Shown: positions 10,716-63,952 of the stretch, piece by piece | Layout of the letters: every line of letters starts with the position of its first letter | How positions within the stretch are numbered: the stretch's first letter is position 1 | Source of the DNA: a virus | Direction: 5' to 3' (one strand) | DNA length: 64,000 nucleotides | IMG/VR virus record: IMGVR_UViG_3300010376_000003 | Coordinates: 1-64,000 of that record | Made by a program: the position numbers and the translations under genes | The notes under the pieces: model-generated | Told to the model about the DNA's origin: nothing | Seen by the model: the letters and a program-made list of their open reading frames with translations, nothing else | Databases searched by the model: none

Positions 10716-11081
10716 TCACCAGTTCCGGTCGGCGGAGAGTCGAGCGAGTTCGGCGTCGCGCTCGGCGAGTCGGCGGTGGAGGTCGACGGTCTTCTCGTCG
10801 CCGAGGTGGACGAGGATCTCGTCGTCGTCGGGGATGTGGCCGGTGTCGCGGGTGGTGCGCTCGACGTAGTCCTGGGCGAGCTGGAGGTCGATCGGGTCCG
10901 CGAAGCTGACCTCCGTCTCGGCCTGGACGACGGTGCGTTCGGGCGGCGCTCCACTGTGCCCTGTGACGTGATCTGCCAGTCGTGTAAGCGCAGCGGCTTG
11001 GGCTTCGAGGGCGGCACGGATGGCGGTGACCTCACGGCTGAGCGCGCGGAGATAGAAGAAGCTGGTCAGGCGCTTCAGCAC
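10716..11081 (-). CDS. hypothetical protein (121 aa), first gene of the packaging operon
   Basis: Track ORF with a GTG start and no obvious SD. Coiled-coil-like sequence (EVTAIRAALEAQAAALTRLADHV...). Confidence 0.45.
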   Translation of the reverse strand: MLKRLTSFFYLRALSREVTAIRAALEAQAAALTRLADHVTGHSGAPPERTVVQAETEVSFADPIDLQLAQDYVERTTRDTGHIPDDDEILVHLGDEKTVDLHRRLAERDAELARLSADRNW

Positions 11082-11103
11082 GCGAGTAAGCTACGCACGG
11101 GGT

Positions 11104-11126
11104 GGGGGATCTTGTCTAGATCCCCC
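11104..11126. promoter_or_regulatory. 9-bp perfect inverted repeat GGGGGATCT-N5-AGATCCCCC in the divergent intergenic region
   Basis: Read directly. It lies in the ~50-bp gap between divergent genes 10716..11081 (-) and 11132..11551 (+). Operator candidate. Confidence 0.4.
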
Positions 11127-11131
11127 TGGCT

Positions 11132-11551
11132 GTGGAGACTCGTTCCCGGATGCTCACAACCCGCCTGTTGCCACCCGAGGAATGGGACAAGCTCGACGAC
11201 ATCGAGCCCTACAAGAGCAAGGGGCTCCCTGGCGACCCGAGCGAGTGGCGCATCGTGGTCGTCGAGCGAGGCGGCGCGGTGGTCGGCACCTGCGCCTTCT
11301 TCACCGCGGTCCACTGGGACAACTGGTGGATTGCCCCCGAGAGCCGAGGCAAGGGAAGCGTGCTCTTGGAGCTGCTCCGCGCCTCCGACAAGCTGCTCGA
11401 AGGGAGCGGCATCGAGACCGTCTACTGCGGCGCCGAGCAGGGGAACGACGCGGCGAGCGACCTGCTCGTCCATTTCGGGTTCCTGCCGACGATTGGGAAG
11501 CTGTTCGTGTTGGATGTGACTGCCGCGCTGCTGCGGCGCAAGGAGGCCTGA
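11132..11551 (+). CDS. GNAT-family N-acetyltransferase-like protein (139 aa; alternative start 11150)
   Basis: IVVVERGGAVVGTCAFF...WWIAPESRGKGSVLLELL matches the GNAT beta4-alpha3 R/Q-x-x-G-x-G/A motif. The size is typical. Confidence 0.6.
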   Translation: METRSRMLTTRLLPPEEWDKLDDIEPYKSKGLPGDPSEWRIVVVERGGAVVGTCAFFTAVHWDNWWIAPESRGKGSVLLELLRASDKLLEGSGIETVYCGAEQGNDAASDLLVHFGFLPTIGKLFVLDVTAALLRRKEA

Positions 11552-11552
11552 G

Positions 11553-12374
11553 ATGGGAACGCTGTCGACCACGATGGGCAGCCTGGCCGGGAGCGCCGGG
11601 AAGATGCCGGGGATGGGCGCCCTGACCGGCGGAGTGAACCAGATGGCGCGCCCGATGATGGGCGCCATGGGCGGGCTGCAGCCAGGCCAGACCAAGCTCC
11701 CCGCGGGTGCTGGCGGCGGCTTGCCGACCGCGATGTCGACGACGCCGGGTGCGGCGCCGGTCGCGGCAGCTGCGGGCGCGGTGCAGAACGCGGCTGGCGG
11801 GCAGGGTGGTCCGCAGACGGCGAAGCCGCAGCAGCCGGGGGCGCAGCAGCCGCCGACCGGATTTGCCCCGCAGACCGGGATGCAGGTCGGCCCCTGGGGC
11901 GGCTCGGTGGGCGCGGGCGGCATCTTCGGCGGGCTGCTGCGCGGCTTCCCTGGGAACGGGATGGGCGCGCCGCAGGTCCAGCCTGGCAGCCAGGGACAGG
12001 TCACCGGCCGCACGGCCATGGGCCAGGGCGCGCCGAACCCGCGGATGGGGTGGATGGGCGGCCAGCCGCAGGCGAAGACCGGGATGGGCTCGCCCTGGGC
12101 CCAGCCACCCCAGACGACGAGCGGGACACCGGTGACGCCGCCAGGTGCGGGCGGCGGGATGATCGGCGGCGGCGGTCAGCAGGGCGGCCCGGCAGCTGGC
12201 GGCGGCCAGCCCGGCGCGGCACAGTCAGGCGCGCTCGCCAACCCGTGGCAGCAGGCCAACCCCTGGCAGCAGCCGGGCGGAGCGCCCGTGCAGCATCTCT
12301 TCAGCGGGATGCCGGTGCAGGGGCAGCCGATGGCCGGCTTCACGCCGATGGCGCCCTCCGGTCAGCCGCAGTAG
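11553..12374 (+). CDS. low-complexity Gly/Gln/Pro/Met-rich protein (273 aa)
   Basis: ATG lies one nt after the upstream TGA (TGAGATG). The frame stays open to 5 nt before the next gene. No ordered domain is visible. Repeated ANPWQQ at the C-terminus. Confidence 0.5.
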   Translation: MGTLSTTMGSLAGSAGKMPGMGALTGGVNQMARPMMGAMGGLQPGQTKLPAGAGGGLPTAMSTTPGAAPVAAAAGAVQNAAGGQGGPQTAKPQQPGAQQPPTGFAPQTGMQVGPWGGSVGAGGIFGGLLRGFPGNGMGAPQVQPGSQGQVTGRTAMGQGAPNPRMGWMGGQPQAKTGMGSPWAQPPQTTSGTPVTPPGAGGGMIGGGGQQGGPAAGGGQPGAAQSGALANPWQQANPWQQPGGAPVQHLFSGMPVQGQPMAGFTPMAPSGQPQ

Positions 12375-12379
12375 GGCCG

Positions 12380-12739
12380 ATGCGTGTCGCCATCGTCGGG
12401 TCACGAAGCTGGACGGACCTCGCCGCAGTACAGCACGTCATCGAGACGCTGGAGCCTGACGACGTCGTCATCAGTGGTGGAGCGCGCGGAGTCGACACCA
12501 TGGCCGTCGAGGCGGCACGCGCCCGCGGGCTGGCCGTCGAAGTGTATCCGGCCGACTGGGATCGGTTCGGGCGGTCGGCTGGGTTCCGGCGCAACGCGAC
12601 GATCGTCGAGCGGGCTGAACGGGTGGTCGCCCTCTGGGACGGACTGTCGCGCGGCACCGCGCATACCATCCGGCTCGCCAAGTTAGCCGGAAAACCGGTC
12701 CTGGTCGTCCTGCCCACACCGAACACAGGAAGTTCGTAG
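12380..12739 (+). CDS. DUF2493 / SLOG-superfamily protein (119 aa)
   Basis: Internal ATG at 12380: MRVAIVGSRSWTD...VVISGGARGVDTMAVEAARARGL...PADWDRFGRSAGFRRNATIVERAERVVALWDGLSRGTAH. This matches the DUF2493 pattern (GSR...GGA.G.D...DW...AG..RN). Confidence 0.75.
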   Translation: MRVAIVGSRSWTDLAAVQHVIETLEPDDVVISGGARGVDTMAVEAARARGLAVEVYPADWDRFGRSAGFRRNATIVERAERVVALWDGLSRGTAHTIRLAKLAGKPVLVVLPTPNTGSS

Positions 12740-12744
12740 ACCGC

Positions 12745-12930
12745 ATGCCAGTCAATCCCCGCCTCGTCGAGCGGGTGCTTCGGAGGCGAATGATGGTGCT
12801 CTCAGTGACCGTGCTGCTGCTGCTCGCCGCCTTCGTGGTGACCGTGCTGTCGGCCATTGGCCGCGCGCCGCTCTGGATTGCGGTGCTGCTCCTGGTCGTC
12901 CTGGGACTGCTCGGCGTGCTTCCGCGGTAA
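12745..12930 (+). CDS. small membrane protein, two predicted TM helices (61 aa)
   Basis: MMVLSVTVLLLLAAFVVTVLSAIG and LWIAVLLLVVLGLLGVL are hydrophobic stretches. Starts 6 nt after the upstream stop. Confidence 0.55.
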   Translation: MPVNPRLVERVLRRRMMVLSVTVLLLLAAFVVTVLSAIGRAPLWIAVLLLVVLGLLGVLPR

Positions 12931-13035
12931 ACTCGGCACGCCGCGTAAAGGGAACTTCGCGCGGAAAAGAAGTGAGGCTCAGCTCTCGGGGGAGGCGGCT
13001 GGGCCTTTTCTCTGTACCGGCGTGGGTGCGCACGT

Positions 13036-13076
13036 GTGCCATGGCGCACTGTTGGCACTTGGATGGCACTTGGCAC
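13036..13076. repeat. cluster of TGGCAC motifs (3 direct, 1 inverted)
   Basis: GTGCCA at 13036; TGGCAC at 13053, 13064 and 13071. All lie in the 236-bp convergent intergenic region. Confidence 0.6.
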
Positions 13077-13166
13077 TCTGGCCGATTTGACATGGTTTTA
13101 CCCCTTCCGAGGCCCGGTTCGACACCGAAACCAGGGGGAAACCCACTGCGCCGGATTGTGCGGTCC

Positions 13167-13421
13167 TCAGCTCTCCCGCGGCGGGCGTGGCCTGTTGTCC
13201 CGCACATGCGTCAGCCAGGCGCGGTGTCCCGGGCTGAGCGCCTGCCACTCCTTGTTGGTGAGCCGCCGCAGACCGCCCTCGATGACCACGAGATAGGTTC
13301 CGCAGTAGGCGCAGATGGAGAAGTCCCCTGGCGCGGGCGCCTCGGGACCGCCGGCAAAGCCGGTCATCGGCTCTCCGCAGCTCGGGCAGCAGCCGAGGTC
13401 GAGGACGTGGAGGTCAGCCAC
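13167..13421 (-). CDS. zinc-ribbon protein (84 aa)
   Basis: Contains CPSCGEP...CAYCGTY. Last gene of a three-gene minus-strand operon. Confidence 0.6.
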   Translation of the reverse strand: MADLHVLDLGCCPSCGEPMTGFAGGPEAPAPGDFSICAYCGTYLVVIEGGLRRLTNKEWQALSPGHRAWLTHVRDNRPRPPRES

Positions 13422-13434
13422 AGTGCGGCTCCTT

Positions 13435-13836
13435 TCAAGAGGGCCAGCTGGTGCCGCGCGTCCCCTGACGGATCTCCCGCAGCTGCAGCAGCAGCCGTCC
13501 CTGGCCGGCGGCGTCCAGTCCGACTCGCTGGAGTAGGGTGACGAACATCTCGTCTGACATCGCGGCCTCGGCGGCCTCGATGAGCATCAGGCCAATCTCG
13601 CGCGCCTTGGCTGGCTCCATCTGCGACCGCTCATCGTTCAGGGTGAAGTCGACGTGTCCCTTGCCCGACTGCGCGCCGAAGCCGCTGGCGACCGTCACCT
13701 CGTCCAGTTCCCGCTCGGACTTGCGGTCGATGACCGCCTCGGCCTGCGCGCGGAACTTCTCGACCAGGCTGCGGCTGGCGCCGACGGCTTGGAGCATCCC
13801 GAGCACTTCTTCGAGGACGAGAACTTTGCGACTCAT
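13435..13836 (-). CDS. hypothetical protein (133 aa)
   Basis: Track ORF with balanced composition. Starts 2 nt after the upstream stop. Confidence 0.6.
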   Translation of the reverse strand: MSRKVLVLEEVLGMLQAVGASRSLVEKFRAQAEAVIDRKSERELDEVTVASGFGAQSGKGHVDFTLNDERSQMEPAKAREIGLMLIEAAEAAMSDEMFVTLLQRVGLDAAGQGRLLLQLREIRQGTRGTSWPS

Positions 13837-13837
13837 T

Positions 13838-14074
13838 TCAGTGTGGCTCCTCGGCCGAAGGGACCGACTGCTGTTTCCGCGCGTCGAGCTGCTGGCGTGC
13901 CTGCCGGATGACTTCGACCCAGTCGACCGTGGCGTAGTCGAGCGACTCCTCGCCCAGGGCGTCCTGGATGCGCCTGAGGAGTGCCAGGTCGTGGCGGCGG
14001 TTCTCGGCGGAGAGGCCGAGGAGCAGGAGGGTTCTGCCGTCTTTCAGTGGGGAGGTGGCGATAAACATATGCAT
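13838..14074 (-). CDS. hypothetical protein (78 aa), N-terminus paralogous to 25046..25291
   Basis: MHMFIATSPLKDGRTLLLLGLSAENRR resembles MFIANAHLDDDKLLLILGLSRRNRE. The start lies inside an ATGCATATG motif. Confidence 0.55.
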   Translation of the reverse strand: MHMFIATSPLKDGRTLLLLGLSAENRRHDLALLRRIQDALGEESLDYATVDWVEVIRQARQQLDARKQQSVPSAEEPH

Positions 14075-14725
14075 GTCAGGGTAGCCGAGAGCCGGCCGAC
14101 AGGTGTGAAAAAATTTTTCGGCACGCGCACCGCAGCGCCATGACCTGGTGTCATGTCACTGATTGACGTCATCCAGGGCGGTCGCGGTCTCCGTCTGGCG
14201 GCGGCCGCAGGATGCTCCAATTTTTCCGCAAAATTTTTTATTGCTGCGTCCGAACGGGCCCGTACACGCACCACGCCCTACGGCCTCGCGGACAATGACG
14301 CCGACATCGACGCCCTGAGGCGTCGCTGTCGCCCTCGCCGTCAGCTCCAGGCCCGCTGCAGCTGCAGGCGACGGCTGGCAGCGGCAGGCGGCCGGCAGCT
14401 GGTGGCGCTGCGCGCGGTCGTCGTTCCTGGCGCCTCCTGGCGCCGCTGGCGCGCCTCGACGCGCGTCCCTGGAGCGGTCGAGCGCCCTCGACGCCACCAG
14501 CTGAGGCGGCCCGCCGCCGGCAGCTGCAGGGGCTGAAACCGACCCGGTACAAGCGCCCTCTGTACAAGCCCTGCCGCTAACTGCTGCAGCTGCTGTACTT
14601 GCAGCCAGTGACCTCGTGCTAGCCAAGCACGAGATCGGTACACTCCAGGCCTGTTTTTACGGCTTCCTGACGAAACTAGACCAGCTCGACCACTACATGT
14701 CGTGGTGCCGCTACTGTTGTGCTAC

Positions 14726-14756
14726 CAAAGCTTGTAGCTTGCAAAGCTTCAAAGCG
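14726..14756. repeat. CAAAGC hexamer array (3 copies, spacing 16 and 8 nt)
   Basis: CAAAGCTT at 14726 and 14742; CAAAGCG at 14750. The complementary GCTTTG array is at 24142-24180. Confidence 0.6.
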
Positions 14757-15274
14757 TCAAACTACGATTGTCGTGTTAGTTCGGTGCGGCGGCGCGGCAA
14801 GGTAGGTAGCCGCCGGGTTTGGTTAGGCCAGCCCGAAGCCAGCCGATTGACAACAGAAGAGGCAAGCGAAGCGGGGAAGCCGCGATGGGCAGCTGGTGAC
14901 AGCAGCTGACCGGAGCAGTCGACCGCTGAGGCAGAGCTGCTAAACCCAGGCGATGACTGCAAACCCCCTGGAACCGTGGTCGGTGACCGGCAGCCAGCGA
15001 AGAGACCGTCAGGCCCCCTTGGGCTAAACCCGGTCCCCCTCAGCTGACAGACAGAGAGTGGATAGGCCCGCAGAGCGAACCGACGACCGGATGCCAGATA
15101 CCAGGGACGCACACCCCAGGCAGAGCACCACCGGCTGCTACGGCCAGCAATGGCCGACCCCCGACAGCCAGAGACGACGGCGAGCGCACGGCTGAAGCGC
15201 TCCAAGGCGGTTCTGGCACCCCGACTACGGCAGATGTTCTGCCGCCAGCCGCTGGGCACTCGACAGCAGCTGCC

Positions 15275-15296
15275 GGGAGCACATCCGCTCCGACCA
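15275..15296 (+). promoter_or_regulatory. conserved 22-mer GGGAGCACATCCGCTCCGACCA, copy 1
   Basis: Identical to 15603-15624. Contains the hairpin GGAGC-ACATCC-GCTCC. Lies 19 nt upstream of ATG 15315. Confidence 0.5.
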
Positions 15297-15314
15297 CGAA
15301 AGGACAGACACACC

Positions 15315-15542
15315 ATGACCGTAACGACCGTCGACCGTCCCTACTTGATGACCCTGCCGCAGCGCGGTTACGGGATCAGCTTCCCGCTGAGTTCGACCGA
15401 AGCGCAGGAAATGCTCGACCACAACCCGGTCATCACGGCCACCCGTGAGCGGGTGGTGCTGCACGACGTCAACAATGCCCGGTGGATCGAGCTGACGCCT
15501 GCCACGCTAGGCGGCGGCGCGGCGTTCGTCCTCACCCGCTAG
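15315..15542 (+). CDS. hypothetical protein (75 aa)
   Basis: Internal ATG of track ORF 15150..15542 with AAAGGA upstream. Sequence MTVTTVDRPYLMTLPQRGYGISFPLSSTEAQEML... Confidence 0.55.
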   Translation: MTVTTVDRPYLMTLPQRGYGISFPLSSTEAQEMLDHNPVITATRERVVLHDVNNARWIELTPATLGGGAAFVLTR

Positions 15543-15602: not shown

Positions 15603-15624
15603 GGGAGCACATCCGCTCCGACCA
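15603..15624 (+). promoter_or_regulatory. conserved 22-mer GGGAGCACATCCGCTCCGACCA, copy 2
   Basis: Identical to 15275-15296. Lies 52 nt upstream of ATG 15676. Confidence 0.5.
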
Positions 15625-15675
15625 GACAAACCAGTCAACCAGCCCCCTGAGGGGGCAGAAGAGAGCACAGACACC

Positions 15676-21794: not shown

Positions 21795-21992
21795 ATGAAG
21801 CGGTTCGACCAGGGTGTCATCGCGGAGCTGGAGGCCATCGAGGAGCTGCTGCTGAAGCGGCGCGCCGAGGTGGTCGGCCGGGGCGTCAGCACCGACGAAG
21901 CGTTCGGGCGGGTGTTCGCTTTGGGCGCGGTCGATAGTGCTGTCTGGCGGCTGCTGCGCCGGGCGAAGGGCGAGGAAGTCGCTGACGGCTAG
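21795..21992 (+). CDS. hypothetical protein (65 aa)
   Basis: AGGAGGGAG SD 6 nt upstream. The 3' ends converge and overlap by 4 nt with 21989..23047. Confidence 0.5.
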   Translation: MKRFDQGVIAELEAIEELLLKRRAEVVGRGVSTDEAFGRVFALGAVDSAVWRLLRRAKGEEVADG

Positions 21993-23047
21993 TCGCGTAC
22001 GTGCGGCCGGCTGGCGGCGCTCTGCTCGGGCATCAGGTAGCGTAGAGCGCCGCCCTCGAAGTACAGCTCGATTGCGCGGACCACATCGGCCACCGTCACC
22101 AGGTGCATGCAGCGCGGCAGCACGCGCGACGTCTTGGCGTAGCGGTGCGTGACGAGCGGGTCTTTCATGCTCGGGTCTTCCAGCTCGACCACATCCACGC
22201 AGCGCTCCTCCAGGCGGTCGCGGCTGTCGCCGTCGCCGAGGGGGACAACCCGGTTCTTCCAACAGCCCCCGTCGTCACAGCAGCGCAAGGCGCCGACGCG
22301 GTGCAGGAACTGGTGGTGGGGATAGGCGACCCAGTGCGGCGGCTCCCGGCCGCCGGCAATGACCACACACGGGCGGTTCTTCGGGCCGTAGGGGTCGCAG
22401 GGCACGGCAGCGGCCAGGTGCATCAGGAGCGAGATCGGGCTGACGCAGCCCTGACAGTGATAGACCAGGCGTACCAGCTGGCGCAGGTCGGTCTGGCCGC
22501 GCAGGTCGACCACGCCCCTGAGCGGCGGATGCTCGTCCCCCGCGTTGCCGACCTGCACGAACAGGATGCGGCCAGCGAAGTGGTCGATGACCGCCTGGTG
22601 CCGTTCGGCAGCCCACCACTTGACGGTGACATCGAGCTTGCCCCCACTGACCAGCAGCCAGTAGGGCACCTTCTGCCCGACGACCTCCTCGACCTGGGTG
22701 CGCTGGCCCTTCTCTGCCTCGGTCAGGTAGATGTCGCCTCTGTGCGCCGTCGTGCGAATGGTCAGCCCCAGCTTCTCATTGAGGTAGTCGCTGAACCCGT
22801 GCACGAAGTGCCAGGGCTCGTGGTTCGCTTTCCAGATGAGCGGGTAGTCGCACTGGAAGAGTGGCGCCTCGGAGTTAGCCAGCGGCGTGATGTAGGGGTT
22901 GTGCGCCCACAGCTGCGGGCAGGGCGTACGCACGTCGGTGAGGAACTGGCCGGGATAGCTCAGATGCAAGTCGCGCACGGCGGCTGTCATCATCACGATG
23001 TCGCCGGGGCATTGCCAGTTGCGCAGGATCAACTTGCGCTGGGGCAT
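21989..23047 (-). CDS. glycosyltransferase family 9 (heptosyltransferase-like) protein (352 aa)
   Basis: N-terminal KLILRNWQCPGDIVMMTAAVRDLHLSYPG and central LRGQTDLRQLVRLVYHCQGCVSPISLLMHLAAAVP...VVIAGG match GT9 hallmarks (R..GD...P.....P; G.T.L..L..L......D(S/T)G..HLAAA). Confidence 0.65.
   Translation of the reverse strand: MPQRKLILRNWQCPGDIVMMTAAVRDLHLSYPGQFLTDVRTPCPQLWAHNPYITPLANSEAPLFQCDYPLIWKANHEPWHFVHGFSDYLNEKLGLTIRTTAHRGDIYLTEAEKGQRTQVEEVVGQKVPYWLLVSGGKLDVTVKWWAAERHQAVIDHFAGRILFVQVGNAGDEHPPLRGVVDLRGQTDLRQLVRLVYHCQGCVSPISLLMHLAAAVPCDPYGPKNRPCVVIAGGREPPHWVAYPHHQFLHRVGALRCCDDGGCWKNRVVPLGDGDSRDRLEERCVDVVELEDPSMKDPLVTHRYAKTSRVLPRCMHLVTVADVVRAIELYFEGGALRYLMPEQSAASRPHVRD
21994..22019. repeat. 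26-bp direct repeat, copy 2 (CGCGTACGTGCGGCCGGCTGGCGGCG)
   Basis: See 21447-21472. This copy lies in the last codons of the GT9-like gene. Confidence 0.85.
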
Positions 23048-24068: not shown

Positions 24069-24141
24069 ACCCTCAGCAGGGGCCGAGTCAAGCCTCCCCA
24101 GTGGTGGGGGGCGCAGCGAAAGATGACACCAGCTGGAGCCC

Positions 24142-24180
24142 AGCTTTGTAGGCTAGAAGCTTTGTTGCTTTGTTGCTTTG
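24142..24180. repeat. GCTTTG hexamer array (4 copies, spacing 16, 8, 8 nt)
   Basis: GCTTTG at 24143, 24159, 24167 and 24175, in the divergent intergenic region. TGTTAGGGT (extended -10-like) follows. Confidence 0.6.
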
Positions 24181-24218
24181 CATGTTAGGGTGGAGCGTCC
24201 CGAAGGAGGGGACCGACG

Positions 24219-24551
24219 ATGCCGAAGAAGATGCAGACCGAATATTCAGGAGACCCGGTGTTCGATGTTGACCAGCCGGTCTACGAAGCGGTGAAGGAGC
24301 GGAAGGGACGCCCGATCCGCATCCGCCTCCAGCCGCAGATCCTGCGCACGCGCGAGGGCGAGGGCTACACCACCAGCTCGGCGTACTACCAGTTCTGGAA
24401 GGAGGTGCGCTGGACGATTGAGTGCGGAACGCCGAAGGAGGTGTTCCAGCTGAGAGATGCGCTGCGGGCGTTCTTCAAGGCGCTCGGGCGCGGCGGGGTG
24501 AAGGCGACCATGGCGGCGCTCGACACGGTGCCGGAAGAGGAGGCCGCATGA
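24219..24551 (+). CDS. hypothetical protein (110 aa)
   Basis: GAAGGAGGGG SD upstream. Track ORF. Confidence 0.6.
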   Translation: MPKKMQTEYSGDPVFDVDQPVYEAVKERKGRPIRIRLQPQILRTREGEGYTTSSAYYQFWKEVRWTIECGTPKEVFQLRDALRAFFKALGRGGVKATMAALDTVPEEEAA

Positions 24552-32349: not shown

Positions 32350-33821
32350 TGCTGCGCCAGGCTACCCCTCCTGACCCGAGTCTGAGCTTCGGGCTGCGCC
32401 CGCCTACGCCGGTGGCTGATGTACCCCGGCCGGCTGTCGTACCCAAGGAGACGGTACCGGCGCCGGTCAGCCCCGACACGCCGCTTGTCACTGCAGGCGG
32501 GGACAGCGGACTCTGGCCGTCGCCGGTGCCGACCTTCACCTACTTAGCTGGCGCCGCTGGCAGCGGGAAAACCTTCGCGACCAAGGAGTGGGCGGCGCGT
32601 GAGAGCGGGCTCCTCCTCTGCGCGACGACCGGCATCGCGGCCATCAACCTGGGCGGCGAGACAGTCAATTCGATCCTGGGTTACTTCGACACCGCCAGCC
32701 TGCAGGAGAGTTACGTCAACGGCTTCCTCACCGCGAAGCTGGGGAAGCTGTGGCGAGCGGGGGTGCGCCGGCTGATCCTCGACGAGGTCTCGATGCTGGC
32801 CGGCGACCAGCTCACCTACATCGTCAAGGCGATCGAGGAGGTGAACGGGCGGGGGTATGTGCTGGGGAAGTGGACTGCCGACGATGAGGACACGCCGCCA
32901 CCGGCCATGGGCCTGACGCTGGTCGGCGACTTCCTCCAGCTCTCACCGGTGAAGGCGACCTACGCCTTCGAGAGTAGCGAGTGGGGACGGTTCACCCCGA
33001 ACGTGATCACCCTCACCGAGATCCGCCGGCAGGCCGACCCCGAGTTCATCGAGATGCTGCGGGCCGCCAGGAGCGGCAAGGGCCAGGTCGTGGCCGACTA
33101 CTTCCAAGCGCGCAACGCCATCCAGCAGGAGACCGACCAGCACTTCGACGGGCCGACCATCTTCGCGAAGAACGAGAGCGTCGACCGGCACAACTACCTG
33201 CGGCTGGCTGCGGTCACCGGGCGGGAGGTCGTCTTCCCGAGCACCCGCTTCGGCAAGCTGCGCAGCGAGTGGGGGCAGCTGGAGAAGCCCGAGCACACCT
33301 GGGGCATCCCGAAGACGCTCACGCTGAAAGTCGGCGCGCTGGTGATGATCCTGGCGAACGAGCGCGACACCGAGAGTCACCAACTGGTGTATGTGAACGG
33401 CGACCTGGGGACGATTGTCGACGCCGAGGACGGCTGCGCGCATGTGCGACTGCAGCGCACCGGCGAGGTGGTGAAGGTGACGCCGGTCGAGCGGGCGGTG
33501 CGCGTGCCGTGCGACTCGGCGCGCAGGACCGAGCTGCGCAAGCAGGGCAAGGGCGACTTCATCGACGGGAAGTGGGAGATCGTCGGGGGGATTATCTACA
33601 TGCCACTGCGGGTTGCATATGCAAGCACAGTCCACAAGAGCCAGGGGCTGAGCCTGGACAAGGTGCAGATCAACGTCCGCGATCCTTTTTTCAGAACCGC
33701 CGGCATGTTGTATGTCGCCCTCTCGCGGGCACGTACGGCCGAGGGGCTGCGATTGGTGGGGAGCCCGCAGGCGCTCGACGAGCGCGCGACAGTCGATCCA
33801 CGGGTGAAGCAGTGGCTGTGA
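32346..33821 (+). CDS. PIF1/RecD-family ATP-dependent DNA helicase (491 aa)
   Basis: Walker A is GAAGSGKTF and Walker B is LILDEVSML. The C-terminus reads YASTVHKSQGLSLDKVQINV...LYVALSRARTAEGLRLVG. Confidence 0.85.
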   Translation: MMLRQATPPDPSLSFGLRPPTPVADVPRPAVVPKETVPAPVSPDTPLVTAGGDSGLWPSPVPTFTYLAGAAGSGKTFATKEWAARESGLLLCATTGIAAINLGGETVNSILGYFDTASLQESYVNGFLTAKLGKLWRAGVRRLILDEVSMLAGDQLTYIVKAIEEVNGRGYVLGKWTADDEDTPPPAMGLTLVGDFLQLSPVKATYAFESSEWGRFTPNVITLTEIRRQADPEFIEMLRAARSGKGQVVADYFQARNAIQQETDQHFDGPTIFAKNESVDRHNYLRLAAVTGREVVFPSTRFGKLRSEWGQLEKPEHTWGIPKTLTLKVGALVMILANERDTESHQLVYVNGDLGTIVDAEDGCAHVRLQRTGEVVKVTPVERAVRVPCDSARRTELRKQGKGDFIDGKWEIVGGIIYMPLRVAYASTVHKSQGLSLDKVQINVRDPFFRTAGMLYVALSRARTAEGLRLVGSPQALDERATVDPRVKQWL

Positions 33822-34395
33822 TCAGGGCGTGGCAAGCGATGGTCGGGCGAGGCGCGGGTTGGCTTGGCAAGGTGCGGCCCGGCGGGGTATGGCCTGGCTA
33901 GGTGTGGCGAGCTTGGGTGAGCTGCGGCAAGGAAGGCCTAGGCTTGGTCGGCTTAGGCGGGGCGTGGCGAGGCGCGGTCTGGTGCGGCTTGACTTGGTCT
34001 GGCACGGCGAGGCGGGGTCTGGTCCGGTGGGGTCTGGTGTTGGTGGGGCTCGGCATGGTCTGGTGTGCTGAGGCTAGGTTGGGAGGGGCGTGGCAGGGCT
34101 TGCCATGGTTGTGCGACGGCGAGCTTGGGCAGGGTCGAGTGGGGCGTGGCGCGGCGAGGCACGACACGGTTCGGTGTGGCTCGGTCAGGCTTGGCTTGGT
34201 CGGCTAAGGCACGGTATGGCTGGATTTGGTCAGGCTAGGCACGGCGTGGTGTGGTGAGGAGAGATCTGGTCAGCCGCGCTCGGGTGGGCAGTGACGCGGC
34301 TTGGCGTGCCGGGGCTTGGCGGGCCGAGGCGGGGCGCGGTAAGTCGGGGCAAGGTCCGGTGTGACGTGGTGTGGTCAACGCAGAGAAGAGGAGCT
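33822..34395 (+). repeat. G+T-skewed, A-poor degenerate repeat tract (GGCNTGG-type words)
   Basis: Read directly, e.g. 4 A in the 60 nt at 33961-34020. Recurrent words are GGCGTGGC and GGCTTGG, GGCTTGGTCGGCT(T/A)AGGC (33943 and 34195) and GGCGAGCTTGGG (33909 and 34118). Only short W/G/R/L-rich ORFs cross it. Confidence 0.75.
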
Positions 34396-34401
34396 ACGAC
34401 G

Positions 34402-35031
34402 ATGGCTAAGAAGACAACGATGCCGACAGCGATTGGTCCCGTGAGCAACGGCGCAACCGCGTTCATCCAGGCGCGGGCGCCTTATCTCGCATCCGTTGAA
34501 GTTACAGGGGTCGCCGACATGCTGTTCCACGGGTGGAACGTCGAGGCGATTGCGGAAGGCGCCGACAGGCCGAAGGGGTCGAAGGAAAAGAAGACCGACA
34601 ACCTGGAGTCGTACGTCTACCGGGACGCTGACGGCTACATCGGTATCCCCGGCAACTACCTCACCGCGACGATCATCAATGCGGCGAAGTATCGACAGGA
34701 CCCGCGCAGTCCGCGCAAGTCGGCGATGGACCTGTTTCGCGCGGGCGTGCTGCCGATGACCCCGATCGCGTCACTCGGTACCAAGAAGTGGGACTACGAG
34801 CACCGTTGCCGTGTGACCATCCAGCGCAACGGCGTCACACGCTGCCGACCAGCATTCAAGGCGGGCTGGAGGGCGCAGTTCGAGTTGCAGGTGATCCTCC
34901 CTGAGTACATCCCGCCGGATGTCCTGAATACCACGATCACCGAGGCCGGTCGGCTCTGCGGCCTCGCGGACTTCCGACCGACCTACGGGCGCTTCCAGGT
35001 AACGCACTTCGAGATGGTGAGCTTGTCGTGA
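34402..35031 (+). CDS. hypothetical protein (209 aa)
   Basis: ATG at 34402 with AGAGGAG upstream. The N-terminus of track ORF 34291.. lies in the repeat tract. I recognised no family. Confidence 0.6.
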   Translation: MAKKTTMPTAIGPVSNGATAFIQARAPYLASVEVTGVADMLFHGWNVEAIAEGADRPKGSKEKKTDNLESYVYRDADGYIGIPGNYLTATIINAAKYRQDPRSPRKSAMDLFRAGVLPMTPIASLGTKKWDYEHRCRVTIQRNGVTRCRPAFKAGWRAQFELQVILPEYIPPDVLNTTITEAGRLCGLADFRPTYGRFQVTHFEMVSLS

Positions 35032-35088
35032 GTGAACCGCGACCGCGACAAGTCGACAGCGACCGTGTAACCAACAAAGGAGGAACAG

Positions 35089-35553
35089 ATGGCAGCGATC
35101 CCAGTCATTCTCAACGGCACCTTCACCCAGGACAACGGCCAGAGCTTCAACGGCACGTTCCAGGGGGTGATGGGCTACAGCAACCTCGCGATCGGCGGCG
35201 GCCCGATCCCGGCGCCGCCGGGCGTCCCGACGCATCCCATCGTCCCGCCGGGTGGCTATCCCGAGCCTGGGCACCCGATCGTCCCGCCGGGTGGCTATCC
35301 GCATCCAGAGCACCCGATTGTGTTGCCGCCCTACCCACCCGGCGTGCCGACACACCCGATCGTGTTGCCGCCGGACCAGCCGGGGCACCCGGCGCACCCG
35401 ATCGTCATTCCGGACCCGCCGGTGGACGTGCCGCCGGATGTGCCGCCCGGGACGGTGGTGAAGCCGCCGCCCGAGAGCGGGGGCTGGGGCTGGATCGCGC
35501 CCTACGGCTGGGGCTATTTCCCGGCCGTGGGTGACGCCGGCCCGAAGAAGTAA
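35089..35553 (+). CDS. Pro-rich protein with five HPIV(P/L/I)P repeats (154 aa)
   Basis: AAAGGAGGAA SD. Repeats at aa ~44-108 (nt 35218-35412): PTHPIVPPGGYPEPGHPIVPPGGYPHPEHPIVLPPYPPGVPTHPIVLPPDQPGHPAHPIVIPDPP. The C-terminus is Trp/Gly-rich (GGWGWIAPYGWGYFP). Confidence 0.6.
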   Translation: MAAIPVILNGTFTQDNGQSFNGTFQGVMGYSNLAIGGGPIPAPPGVPTHPIVPPGGYPEPGHPIVPPGGYPHPEHPIVLPPYPPGVPTHPIVLPPDQPGHPAHPIVIPDPPVDVPPDVPPGTVVKPPPESGGWGWIAPYGWGYFPAVGDAGPKK

Positions 35554-35665
35554 GCCCGCGGGCTCCTGGGACACCGGTCAGCCGCTGATCGTTCCGCCTG
35601 ACCACTTGTCCAAACCACCCGTGTGGCCCCGAGCGGGGAGGAGGCTTCGGGGCACTCTTCTGGAG

Positions 35666-36289
35666 ATGCATATGCTACTGTCGCGCACGCTCGACCCGAG
35701 TGACTACCAGCACCTGGGGGCGATGCTGGAGGCGGTCGACTGCTACCAGCTGGAGGGCGAGCCGCCGCACCGGCGGTGGGAGTATGCCCTGGCGCTGCAG
35801 GCGATCGGGGAGTGGCACGCGACCGGGCGCCCGTTGCGGGACCCGGTCTACGACGTCACCGACGGGGCGACGCCCTTCCAGCAGCTACTCACGCAGGGTA
35901 CCGGTTGTGCCGTGCGCGTCTGGGACGCCGACATCACCGCCATCCTGGGCCTGAGCACGGGCGCGCAGCTGGCGAGCGTGGTGACCTGCCTCTCGACGAT
36001 CGATCGCGTGCCGCAGCTCGACGACTTCCTCTACTACCTCTCCTGCCTGGTGGCGCCTGGCGGCCTGCTGGTCCTGACGATGCCCTTCTGGGACCGCTGC
36101 GGGCCTGACACCGCACACGGGCACGAGGCGCGCCAGCGAATCTTCTGTCCCAAGACCTACCTGCAGCTGCGGAACACGGCGGTGATGCGGTATCACCTGG
36201 CACCGTTCGGTGGGGTCGACCCGACCTATCACGGCGCGCAGGTCGAGGACCACTCGGTCGCCAGCCTGGTCCTGGAGAAGCGTCGGTGA
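35666..36289 (+). CDS. class I methyltransferase-fold protein, divergent SAM motif (207 aa), paralog 1
   Basis: RRWEYALALQAI...VYDVTDGATPF (degenerate motif I)...VRVWDAD...CLSTIDRVPQLDDFLYYLSCLVAPGGLLVLTMPF. Ends EDHSVASLVLEKRR, like its neighbour. The start ATGCATATG is uncertain. Confidence 0.55.
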   Translation: MHMLLSRTLDPSDYQHLGAMLEAVDCYQLEGEPPHRRWEYALALQAIGEWHATGRPLRDPVYDVTDGATPFQQLLTQGTGCAVRVWDADITAILGLSTGAQLASVVTCLSTIDRVPQLDDFLYYLSCLVAPGGLLVLTMPFWDRCGPDTAHGHEARQRIFCPKTYLQLRNTAVMRYHLAPFGGVDPTYHGAQVEDHSVASLVLEKRR

Positions 36290-38722: not shown

Positions 38723-38791
38723 GGTTTTATTGGGGTTTTTCAGGCCTGTTTTCGCTTAAGTAGCCCGTTCTGGGCCCCCGTTCCCCGAAAA

Positions 38792-38807
38792 CTAGTACCG
38801 GTACTAG
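38792..38807. repeat. 16-nt palindrome CTAGTACCGGTACTAG (inverted pair of the arm 10-mer, right arm)
   Basis: Read directly, ~70 nt to the right of the tRNA-like core. Confidence 0.6.
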
Positions 38808-63301: not shown

Positions 63302-63952
63302 CTAGGTCTCCACCTGCACCGTGAACTGCCAGGAGGGGTCGCCCGCGACGATCTGCAGCGAGAAGAGGTCGTCCTGGGCGACCGTGCCCGAGGCGGTGTA
63401 GGTGCGCACCGCGCCGACGGTGGCCGAGGGCGGCAGGGTTTGGACGCCGCCCAGGACCGAGGTGCCGTTCTTGAGGATGTTGAAGGTCAAGGTCGTCGGC
63501 CCGAGGGTGAGCGGGATGAGCTTGCAAAGCGAGAGCGTCGCGCCGCGGGGCGCGATTTGGTACGGCCCGGCGGGGTTGGCTGACTGGCCGTTCAGGACAT
63601 TCCAGCCCACGACGATGATCGGCGGGTAGGTGCCAGCAGAGCCGGGAGGACCCTGAGGACCGGTCGGACCCGCAGGACCGGTCGGGCCCTGAGGACCGGA
63701 GGGCCCCTGCGGGCCGGCGGGACCCATCGCGCCGTCCGCACCAGCGGGGCCGGTCGCCCCCGTCGCACCGGTATTGCCTTGGGGACCGGTGGCCCCGGTC
63801 AGCCCAGTCGGGCCTTGGGCGCCGGTCGGACCGAGGACGGCGAGTTGGCTCGCCGTCATCTTCATGGTCACCCCGCCCTGGTTGACCGGGATCTCGTCGG
63901 TCGGCTGGCTGGCGGCGATCGCCGGCAGTTGCGAGATCTTGCTGTCGGCCAC
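63302..63952 (-). CDS. collagen-like tail fibre protein (216 aa)
   Basis: GTG start with AGGAGG upstream. N-terminal [36 protein letters not shown] fibre-type motif. Gly-X-Y block at aa ~41-107 (nt 63632-63832). Confidence 0.85.

Follow-up and report, generated by a model that had tools for sequence, protein, structure and literature searches.

What is the purpose of more than a kilobase of gene-free DNA in a phage genome? The question is raised by positions 14075-15314 of a 64,000-nt stretch (the window), which comprises bases 1-64000 of a metagenome-derived, 69,818-bp IMG/VR virus record with a G+C content of 68%. The phage is temperate, its genome is about 70 kb and this gap is its main intergenic hub. 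An earlier note on the same DNA offered four candidate roles: a large structured non-coding RNA, a lysis-lysogeny control region, a replication origin or a decayed gene. Our answer is that the gap is a modular control region of an ordinary kind, made up of separate modules and not a single element. Read from left to right, these are a conserved core site, a GC-rich spacer, an operator patch and a leader. This is the best explanation overall, and we hold it to be somewhat better than evenly probable. The modules and the sites that belong to them are as follows.

14075-15314, no strand: the whole non-coding gap, between minus-strand genes (13167-14074) and the first plus-strand early gene (15315-15542)
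14226-14257, plus strand: left half of the core, with an A-rich block at 14233-14242 and, at 14244-14257, a diverged TGAnGTCGGGnGCG box, from the alignment of 21 sequences
14258-14286, plus strand: C-rich spacer of fixed length from box to motif, with a C-run conserved at -16 to -9
14287-14297, plus strand: invariant core motif CGCGGACAATG, from the 21-sequence profile; single copy in the genome
14297-14545, no strand: GC-rich (~78%) segment rich in CAGCTG; its long imperfect palindrome has one arm at 14353-14420 and the other at 14479-14532 (inverted repeats I1 and I2)
14726-14768, plus strand: candidate early operator/promoter patch; the 24-nt block CAAAGCTTGTAGCTTGCAAAGCTT spans 14726-14749, CAAAGC occurs for the third time at 14750, and there is a weak promoter
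14775-15314, plus strand: T-poor, A-rich stretch (AT skew +0.28 to +0.67), the probable 5' leader of the early operon
24141-24164, minus strand: second CAAAGCTT block, in a divergent region of ~150 nt between the AAA_25 operon (ATG 24068) and a plus-strand gene at ~24219

It is clear that the stretch is genuine non-coding DNA. The spread of GC content between codon positions stays below 0.2 over ~14020-15300, compared with 0.4-0.55 in the flanking genes. The left boundary is the start, at 14074, of a minus-strand gene of 78 amino acids (aa; 13838-14074) and the right boundary is the ATG at 15315 of a plus-strand gene of 75 aa (15315-15542). This ATG is the true start and an upstream ATG at 15150 can be ruled out, because homologs in three relatives align from residue 1-3. 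A search of the gap for tRNA and tmRNA genes returned none, and a search against Rfam returned only c4-a1b1 at E = 0.97, which is chance level and well under the gathering score. The earlier description of a 1.24-kb region poor in open reading frames (ORFs) has thus been borne out, since the gap has no codon-position GC signal, no conserved frame and no Rfam match.

The first clue to function comes from relatives. A large protein database holds homologs of the DUF932 protein at 47-62% identity on contigs of 69-72 kb, and in these contigs and in IMG/VR relatives the layout is the same each time: a minus-strand gene of ~766 aa, small minus-strand genes, a gene-free gap and then DUF932 on the plus strand. 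The gap lies upstream of DUF932 in all relatives examined and measures 554-1135 bp in them (0.55-1.24 kb when the window is included). The leftward 766-aa gene is the large terminase, TerL (phrog_2, 8e-12). Therefore, the gap separates the packaging/structural side of the genome from the early genes. Family members were gathered with the core motif (see below) as a probe together with TerL and DUF932 searches, which gave 24 distinct phages that carry the core. A metagenome scan with a DUF932 alignment recovered mostly distant proteins and one further member of the family.

Pairwise BLAST of the gaps reveals one shared segment, near their left ends, and alignment of this segment yields the invariant sequence CGCGGACAAT. 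An anchored, ungapped profile was then built from 21 non-redundant sequences, with positions counted relative to the motif. The family form is C[G/C]CGGACAAT, followed by G in 20 of 21 sequences, and positions 0 and 2-9 are identical in all 21. Upstream of it the A-rich block occupies -54 to -45 and the TGAnGTCGGGnGCG box -43 to -30. Conservation ends abruptly at +10, past ...ACAATG. In total the conserved core is ~75 nt long and sits at the left end of the gap, and the sequence outside it is not conserved in the relatives. The earlier note had held that a lack of conservation across related phages would count against a functional element. This is what was found for most of the gap, but not for the core. 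The note had also cited the second A/T tract, which does exist; the conserved CGCGGACAATG core that adjoins it was not seen. The core motif is newly defined, and it is specific to this family.

How faithfully does the motif follow the family? All family loci that extend far enough upstream contain it, at a distance of 1.3-6.1 kb from TerL on the upstream side and with no change in orientation. It tracks the family TerL (41-79% identity) and is kept even where TerL identity is 41-49%. It is absent from a phage group whose TerL is 26% identical. Nor does it occur in phages of ~43 kb and prophages of Vicinamibacterales with DUF932 proteins that match to the same degree as those of the most distant family members with the motif. 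In other words, the motif goes with the terminase.

The core also tolerates cargo genes inserted on either side of it. A conserved gene of ~120 aa is the ancestral left neighbour of the core. In the window, 3.2 kb of extra genes, a plus-strand cluster among them, lie between its homolog (10716-11081, 47% identity) and the core. In L040, one of the relatives, the genes that adjoin the core point toward it. This tolerance of cargo on either side fits a DNA site better than a late promoter. Indeed, the core was considered as a leftward late promoter and the idea was rejected: cargo genes, some of them on the opposite strand, intervene, and the late operon has a conserved signal of its own. The latter is the motif GGGGGATCTAGACA, found 45-50 nt before the start of the ~120-aa gene in the window and in 15 of the 18 relatives that have a homolog. 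It occurs once in the window. It is probably the promoter of the late/packaging operon, with TAGACA as the -35 element and (C/T)ATCCT or TAGCTT ~18 nt downstream. In the window the signal reads GGGGGATCTAGACAAGATCCCCC on the minus strand at 11104-11126 (within the gap 11082-11131), 45 nt upstream of the GTG start of the 121-aa gene at 10716-11081.

Several side observations concern this neighbourhood. The apparently inserted cargo of the window (11082-14074, ~3.2 kb) consists of a plus-strand cluster (GNAT, low-complexity, SLOG and 2-TM, i.e., two-transmembrane, proteins) and three minus-strand genes of 84, 133 and 78 aa. In G002, the record to which the divergent family member L022 belongs, the TerL homolog (33748-36029) matches in two pieces of 41% and 49% identity. 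The second piece has one in-frame TGA, and the gene may be split, frameshifted or interrupted.

What does the core do? The leading guess, which we put forward tentatively from sequence comparison, is that it is a packaging recognition site of the cos or pac type. This reading is ranked first because of six properties: there is one copy of the core, it always faces the same way, its distribution follows that of the terminase clade, its conserved part reaches toward the packaging genes alone, an A-rich block belongs to it, and insertions are tolerated on both sides. A packaging site would be expected to occur once per genome, upstream of the packaging genes, in phages that share a terminase, and this is what is found. 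In the proposed scheme the core would be a single-copy DNA site oriented with respect to the packaging genes, at which the terminase would recognise the genome for packaging. On the side of the terminase genes, where no repeated sites were recognised, the conserved A-rich block and box might act as bend and binding sites.

Some observations do not fit so easily. Assembly breaks might be expected at a packaging site, yet no contig stops at the motif, and ends are found 34 nt before it (L298) and 87 nt after it (L240). Contigs from independent assemblies pass through it without a break, and it is internal to a record that is classed as both linear and complete. Bulk metagenome assemblies are a weak test of genome ends. 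No gene was identified as a small terminase, and 1.3-6.1 kb separate the core from TerL. Finally, the sharp drop in conservation after ...ACAATG would also be expected of the -10 element of a promoter.

This last point leads to the next possibility. What if the core is a specialised rightward promoter? In this scenario GACAAT would be the -10 element, with the box and A-rich block serving as sites of an activator or UP-like kind. Transcription from it would run through the GC-rich region and yield a long early leader or a non-coding transcript, possibly with an RNA of the antitermination type. Conservation that spans ~55 nt upstream and stops just after ACAATG is consistent with it, and GACAAT retains the critical A at position 2 and T at position 6. 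In addition, the core always points toward the early genes, and the 249 nt that follow it in the window fold strongly (z -3.8). However, there is no -35 element, the zone where it would lie being a variable C-run, and the ten invariant bases exceed the needs of a -10 element. The downstream sequence and structure are not conserved either. Moreover, a scan with consensus promoters finds nothing at the core. The relatives have canonical sigma-70-type promoters (TTGACA-N17/18-TAnnnT) elsewhere in their gaps, close to DUF932, 60-260 nt upstream of the first early gene and on the rightward strand only. We consider the specialised promoter doubtful. For the core to be an ordinary early promoter is unlikely too, given the missing -35 element and the position of the canonical promoters of the relatives.

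A further reading is about as doubtful as the specialised promoter. Perhaps the core is a cis-acting site of a type for which tailed phages offer no described precedent. It might be an oddly built terminase recognition site that lies kilobases from the terminase genes, or else an assembly point at which packaging, early transcription and recombination of the Xer type come together in phages whose hosts are Acidobacteriota-like. We know of almost no molecular genetics for phages of such hosts. One other suggestion was tried and abandoned, namely a conserved hairpin between box and motif (e.g., ACGGGCCCGT in the window). The palindromes are out of register among the relatives and do not exceed those of shuffled sequences. 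RNAalifold predicts no hairpin in the core or spacer, and the mean folding z-score of the spacer is -0.25.

Among these candidates, then, the packaging site still leads for the core. Further to the right, the low-GC patch at 14726-14768 is likely an early operator/promoter, as judged from its sequence. It coincides with the 100-nt interval of lowest GC in the genome. The CAAAGC array that the earlier note had listed is present, with copies at 14726, 14742 and 14750, and a cluster of at least three copies arose in just one of 600 shuffles. The weak promoter, TTGCAA (14739-14744), N18 and TACGAT (14763-14768), overlaps the array. Further evidence comes from elsewhere in the genome. The 24-nt block has only one other copy in 69.8 kb, inverted, 20/24 identical and 9.4 kb away. 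That copy lies in the middle of a divergent non-coding region, which is a typical position for an operator. Positions 24069-24218 are non-coding and coding signal is found from 24219 on; the AAA_25 domain of the divergent operon has been identified. The same array of words thus recurs at a second promoter region of the same phage, as expected of an operator. The proposal that the gap has a role in lysis-lysogeny or transcription control holds for this sub-part. The equivalent low-GC patch of each relative contains short repeats as well, of a sequence particular to that phage. A phage regulator probably binds both 24-nt sites and would thereby control the weak early promoter at the gap.

Once again there are points on the other side. 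The promoter candidate of the window matches just 8 of 12 consensus positions, and the consensus scan of the gap found none. The operator words are repeated directly and do not form dyads, and a cognate regulator was not identified. Where a relative has a clear promoter, the greater part of its gap is upstream of that promoter, which leaves several hundred nucleotides unexplained. A third copy of the operator word at 63519 was dismissed as chance, being inside a gene. The L007 repeat word CTGATAGCG has one distant extra copy, which is compatible with chance.

The gene that borders the second control region may be described briefly. It is a small plus-strand gene (24219-24440) with an ATG at 24219, a good ribosome-binding site (GAAGGAGGGG), a clear codon-position GC signal and a 38%-identical homolog in the genome of L007. 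A Pfam search with the genes at ~24.2-26 kb gave no match.

Between core and patch lies the second module, a spacer of ~250 nt that is very GC-rich and rich in CAGCTG. The density of CAGCTG is 7.3/kb in the gap and 1.45/kb in the window, a five-fold difference that is beyond chance. In the relatives the core is also followed by ~100-250 nt of 73-87% G+C and then by a low-GC patch, with enrichment of CAGCTG in several. They share neither the sequence nor any significant structure of this segment, the z-score being near zero in most. The GC-rich, CAGCTG-rich stretch forms a long hairpin only in this phage.

The last ~540 nt, from 14775 on, are T-poor and would be the untranslated leader of the early operon. 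A long leader was inferred because A strongly exceeds T, as in the plus-strand early genes, and this stretch is probably a 5' leader. It shows no excess structure and no ORF conserved in the relatives. One feature near its end stands out.

15275-15296, plus strand: exact 22-mer GGGAGCACATCCGCTCCGACCA, repeated at 15603-15624 (repeats D2 and D8); two copies in 0/100 shuffles

Each copy of the 22-mer is upstream of a similar ribosome-binding context. Indeed, a larger unit, consisting of the 22-mer with an internal 5-bp hairpin plus GA(A/G)AG(G/C)ACAGACAC, is duplicated ahead of consecutive genes (15275-15314 and 15603-15675). The 75-aa gene that follows the first copy is downstream of DUF932 in L297, with further homologs in L246 and L258. 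The order in the window looks like a rearrangement that copied the leader.

The remaining explanations concern the gap as a whole. The one that survives best is that the gap, or part of it, is a replication origin. In this view the DNA would unwind at the A/T tracts, with the short phage-specific direct repeats as iterons and DnaA boxes as the sites to which the host initiator is recruited. The relevant tract is the following.

14104-14121, no strand: A/T tract 1 (GAAAAAATTTTTCGG), overlapping the weak DnaA-box-like word TGTGAAAAA at 14104-14112; window-specific copy

Tract 1 forms an inverted pair with tract 2 (pair I10). A/T-only runs of at least 9 nt number just three in 64 kb, and two of them are in the gap, which is beyond chance. 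Along with the genome's lowest-GC 100-nt interval this is what an origin might look like, as are the direct repeats that each phage has in its low-GC patch. One clue from the relatives is that the exact DnaA-box word TTTTCCACA occurs eight times in the gaps of six of them (L004, L036, L236, L239, L241 and L298), against an estimated ~0.04 expected. In L036 the word sits within TTTTCCACAGGAGTTCAACAGG, a 22-nt unit of which two copies stand in tandem. However, the window has just the one weak DnaA-like word TGTGAAAAA, and its repeats are 8-mers in three copies, not iterons of 17-22 bp. The replication genes (AAA_25, PIF1 helicase and PolA) are 8-25 kb away, the nearest being AAA_25 at ~8 kb, and other control regions are equally AT-rich. 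Besides, the CAAAGCTT block recurs at a promoter region, for which an operator is the better fit. We consider an origin in the window improbable.

A related possibility is site-specific recombination. A 28-bp dif-like site, G(C/T)GTCYGATAA-N6-TTATGTTAAC(C/T), is found in either orientation in the gaps of 10 of the 24 relatives (e.g., L132:6860-6984, L007:5660-5764 and, on the minus strand, L200:926-1030), at a match threshold that gives 0.35 matches per shuffled genome. L132 reads GAGAA-TGTATA-TTATGTTAACC. The comparison is with the E. coli dif sequence and serves as a lead only. A site of the dif/cer type (11 + 6 + 11, ...ATAA-N6-TTATGTTAA...) is found nowhere in the genome of the window. L304:1180-1500, in the genome of L007 (G001), has two more dif-like sites and an inverted half-site in an intergenic region of ~300 nt upstream of the PolA operon. 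This is the position at which the window has its integrase and attP. The complete genome of L007 has no PF00589 tyrosine integrase, and neither has the genome of L022. Could the dif-like sites replace the missing integrase? Two other genomes have both an integrase and a dif-like site, and the idea was dropped. The dif-like and DnaA-box modules keep the origin and recombination readings alive for the family, but they are not directly applicable to the window.

Could the gap instead encode a large structured non-coding RNA? The absence of ORFs over such a length would suit this, and so would the segment at 14297-14545, which folds to -156.5 kcal/mol as RNA (z -3.8) and with z -2.5 as DNA. However, folding beyond expectation is seen only at 14200-14530, to the same extent on the two strands, as for a DNA palindrome, and 14560-15300 has no excess. 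There is no Rfam match in the window or in the loci of nine relatives. Folding is unexceptional in most relatives, and the sequence outside the core is not conserved. RNAalifold finds no pairs and no covariation for the core or for the second conserved block, the latter of which was rejected as an RNA structure on this ground. In short, the RNA proposed by the earlier note has no Rfam family, no shared hairpin and no consensus structure in either conserved block, and we regard it as very improbable. The weakest proposal, that the gap is a decayed gene or an atypical Arg/Ala-rich gene masked by its composition, can be dismissed as hardly credible: there are long open frames on both strands of the GC-rich part and six-frame tblastn without composition correction matches the relatives' gaps, but these matches are in all frames and on both strands, none is left once composition correction is on, no codon-position periodicity is seen, and no frame registered to the invariant motif is open family-wide (minimum open stretch 36-105 nt, i.e., interrupted within 12-35 codons in at least one relative).

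What of the remaining short motifs? All of those listed in the earlier note are present, although some positions were off by 1 nt. The A/T tracts begin at 14107 and 14226 (given as 14108 and 14227) and the 12-nt palindrome CTGCAGCTGCAG is at 14356. GTACAAGC occurs at 14547 and 14562, and GCTAAACCC at 14939 and 15023. The three copies of CTGGCGC are at 14427, 14437 and 14446, where the note had given 14437-14468. With 62 occurrences of this word in the window, the repeat in the gap is near chance. The perfect 8-bp hairpin also exists, at 14613-14633, and CAGGCCTGTTTT is at 14646 and again at 38741.

14613-14660, plus strand: perfect 8-bp hairpin (14613-14633) and CAGGCCTGTTTTTAC (14646-14660); local fold z -1.4, not significant

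No plus-strand terminator was called at this hairpin. The consensus scan of the gap gave 0 promoters and one minus-strand terminator-like site (14119-14132), which is within chance expectation. CAGGCCTGTTTT is followed by (G)AAACTAG, in the same order, at 14646-14687 and beside attP (38741-38803), where AAACTAGTACCGG is the arm-type repeat. The pairing recalls the excisionase and repressor proteins that bind both attP and a switch region. However, a shared 13-mer arises in 1.5% of shuffles and the 12-mer common to the gap and the attP region is near chance (p ~0.05, estimated). The resemblance of 14646-14687 to an attP arm comes down to this 12-mer and AAACTAG, and was set aside as a weak lead.

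Can the ends or the host of the phage be read from known relatives? The "direct terminal repeat" of the record is a 123-nt terminal overlap, which we read as the signature of a circular or concatemeric assembly, not of mapped ends. Searches in near and distant modes found no nucleotide-level relative among 50,697 cultured phage records, and the phage family has no cultured member. Among cultured phages, the closest TerL, at 24.5% identity, is that of phages that infect the acidobacterium Tunturiibacter. Packaging data are not given in the paper that describes them, and at 24.5% identity the terminase does not predict an end type. Prophage relatives of DUF932 are found in Vicinamibacterales and Polyangia assemblies. 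The phage carries a GT9 heptosyltransferase-like gene at 21989-23047. The hosts are probably Gram-negative, and probably Acidobacteriota or other soil bacteria that are hard to culture.

Why does this matter? Long gene-free regions of phage genomes are usually left unannotated, and here a comparison with 24 relatives splits one of them into parts that can be tested. The first is the invariant 11-nt motif with its ~75-nt core, which marks a family of ~70-kb soil phages and is a candidate packaging signal. The second is the operator-like word common to two control regions. A defined packaging or control site would help to recognise complete genomes and their ends in metagenomes and to build genetic tools. 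In annotation, the region should be treated as an ordinary modular control hub and not as a new RNA gene.

How does this hub compare with known systems? One comparison is with the bacterial dif and plasmid cer sites of XerCD. The right arm of the relatives' site agrees with dif in 9-10 of its 11 positions, and the central TGTATA of dif recurs in one phage. However, the genome of the window has no such site, and the sites do not follow the absence of an integrase.

The comparison for the core is with cos of phage lambda (cosQ-cosN-cosB, upstream of Nu1). Unlike lambda, the phages described here have no mapped cohesive ends and no identified small terminase, and the core is 1.3-6.1 kb from TerL with several genes between. 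R-type repeats were not recognised on the terminase side, and nothing is conserved on the far side, where cosQ would be. What the two have in common is a gene-free stretch ahead of the packaging genes that contains one copy of the site, and a short invariant core shared by phages with related terminases. In both, more variable elements, some of them A/T-rich, lie on the terminase-gene side of this core; here they would be candidate binding or bend sites.

For the operator patch the counterpart is the OL/OR pair of lambdoid phages. The arrays differ in consisting of direct 6-8-mers spaced 16 and 8 nt apart and not of 17-bp dyads. They also differ in that the promoter overlapped is weak, no repressor has been assigned and the array is ~550 nt upstream of the first gene. 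The likeness is that a phage-specific array of words is present at two control regions only (14726-14757 and 24141-24180), each pointing toward an operon. The differing words of the relatives are as expected for immunity specificity.

The hub as a whole resembles the right-end non-coding region of mycobacteriophages of the cos type such as L5, in which the early promoter P-left and repressor-binding sites lie near the genome end. The two share no sequence or protein relationship, the host here is probably Gram-negative and the genome ends here are not mapped. Nevertheless, in both cases a non-coding stretch of about a kilobase, furnished with repressor-binding words or their likely equivalent, lies between a packaging/structural arm and a divergent early arm.

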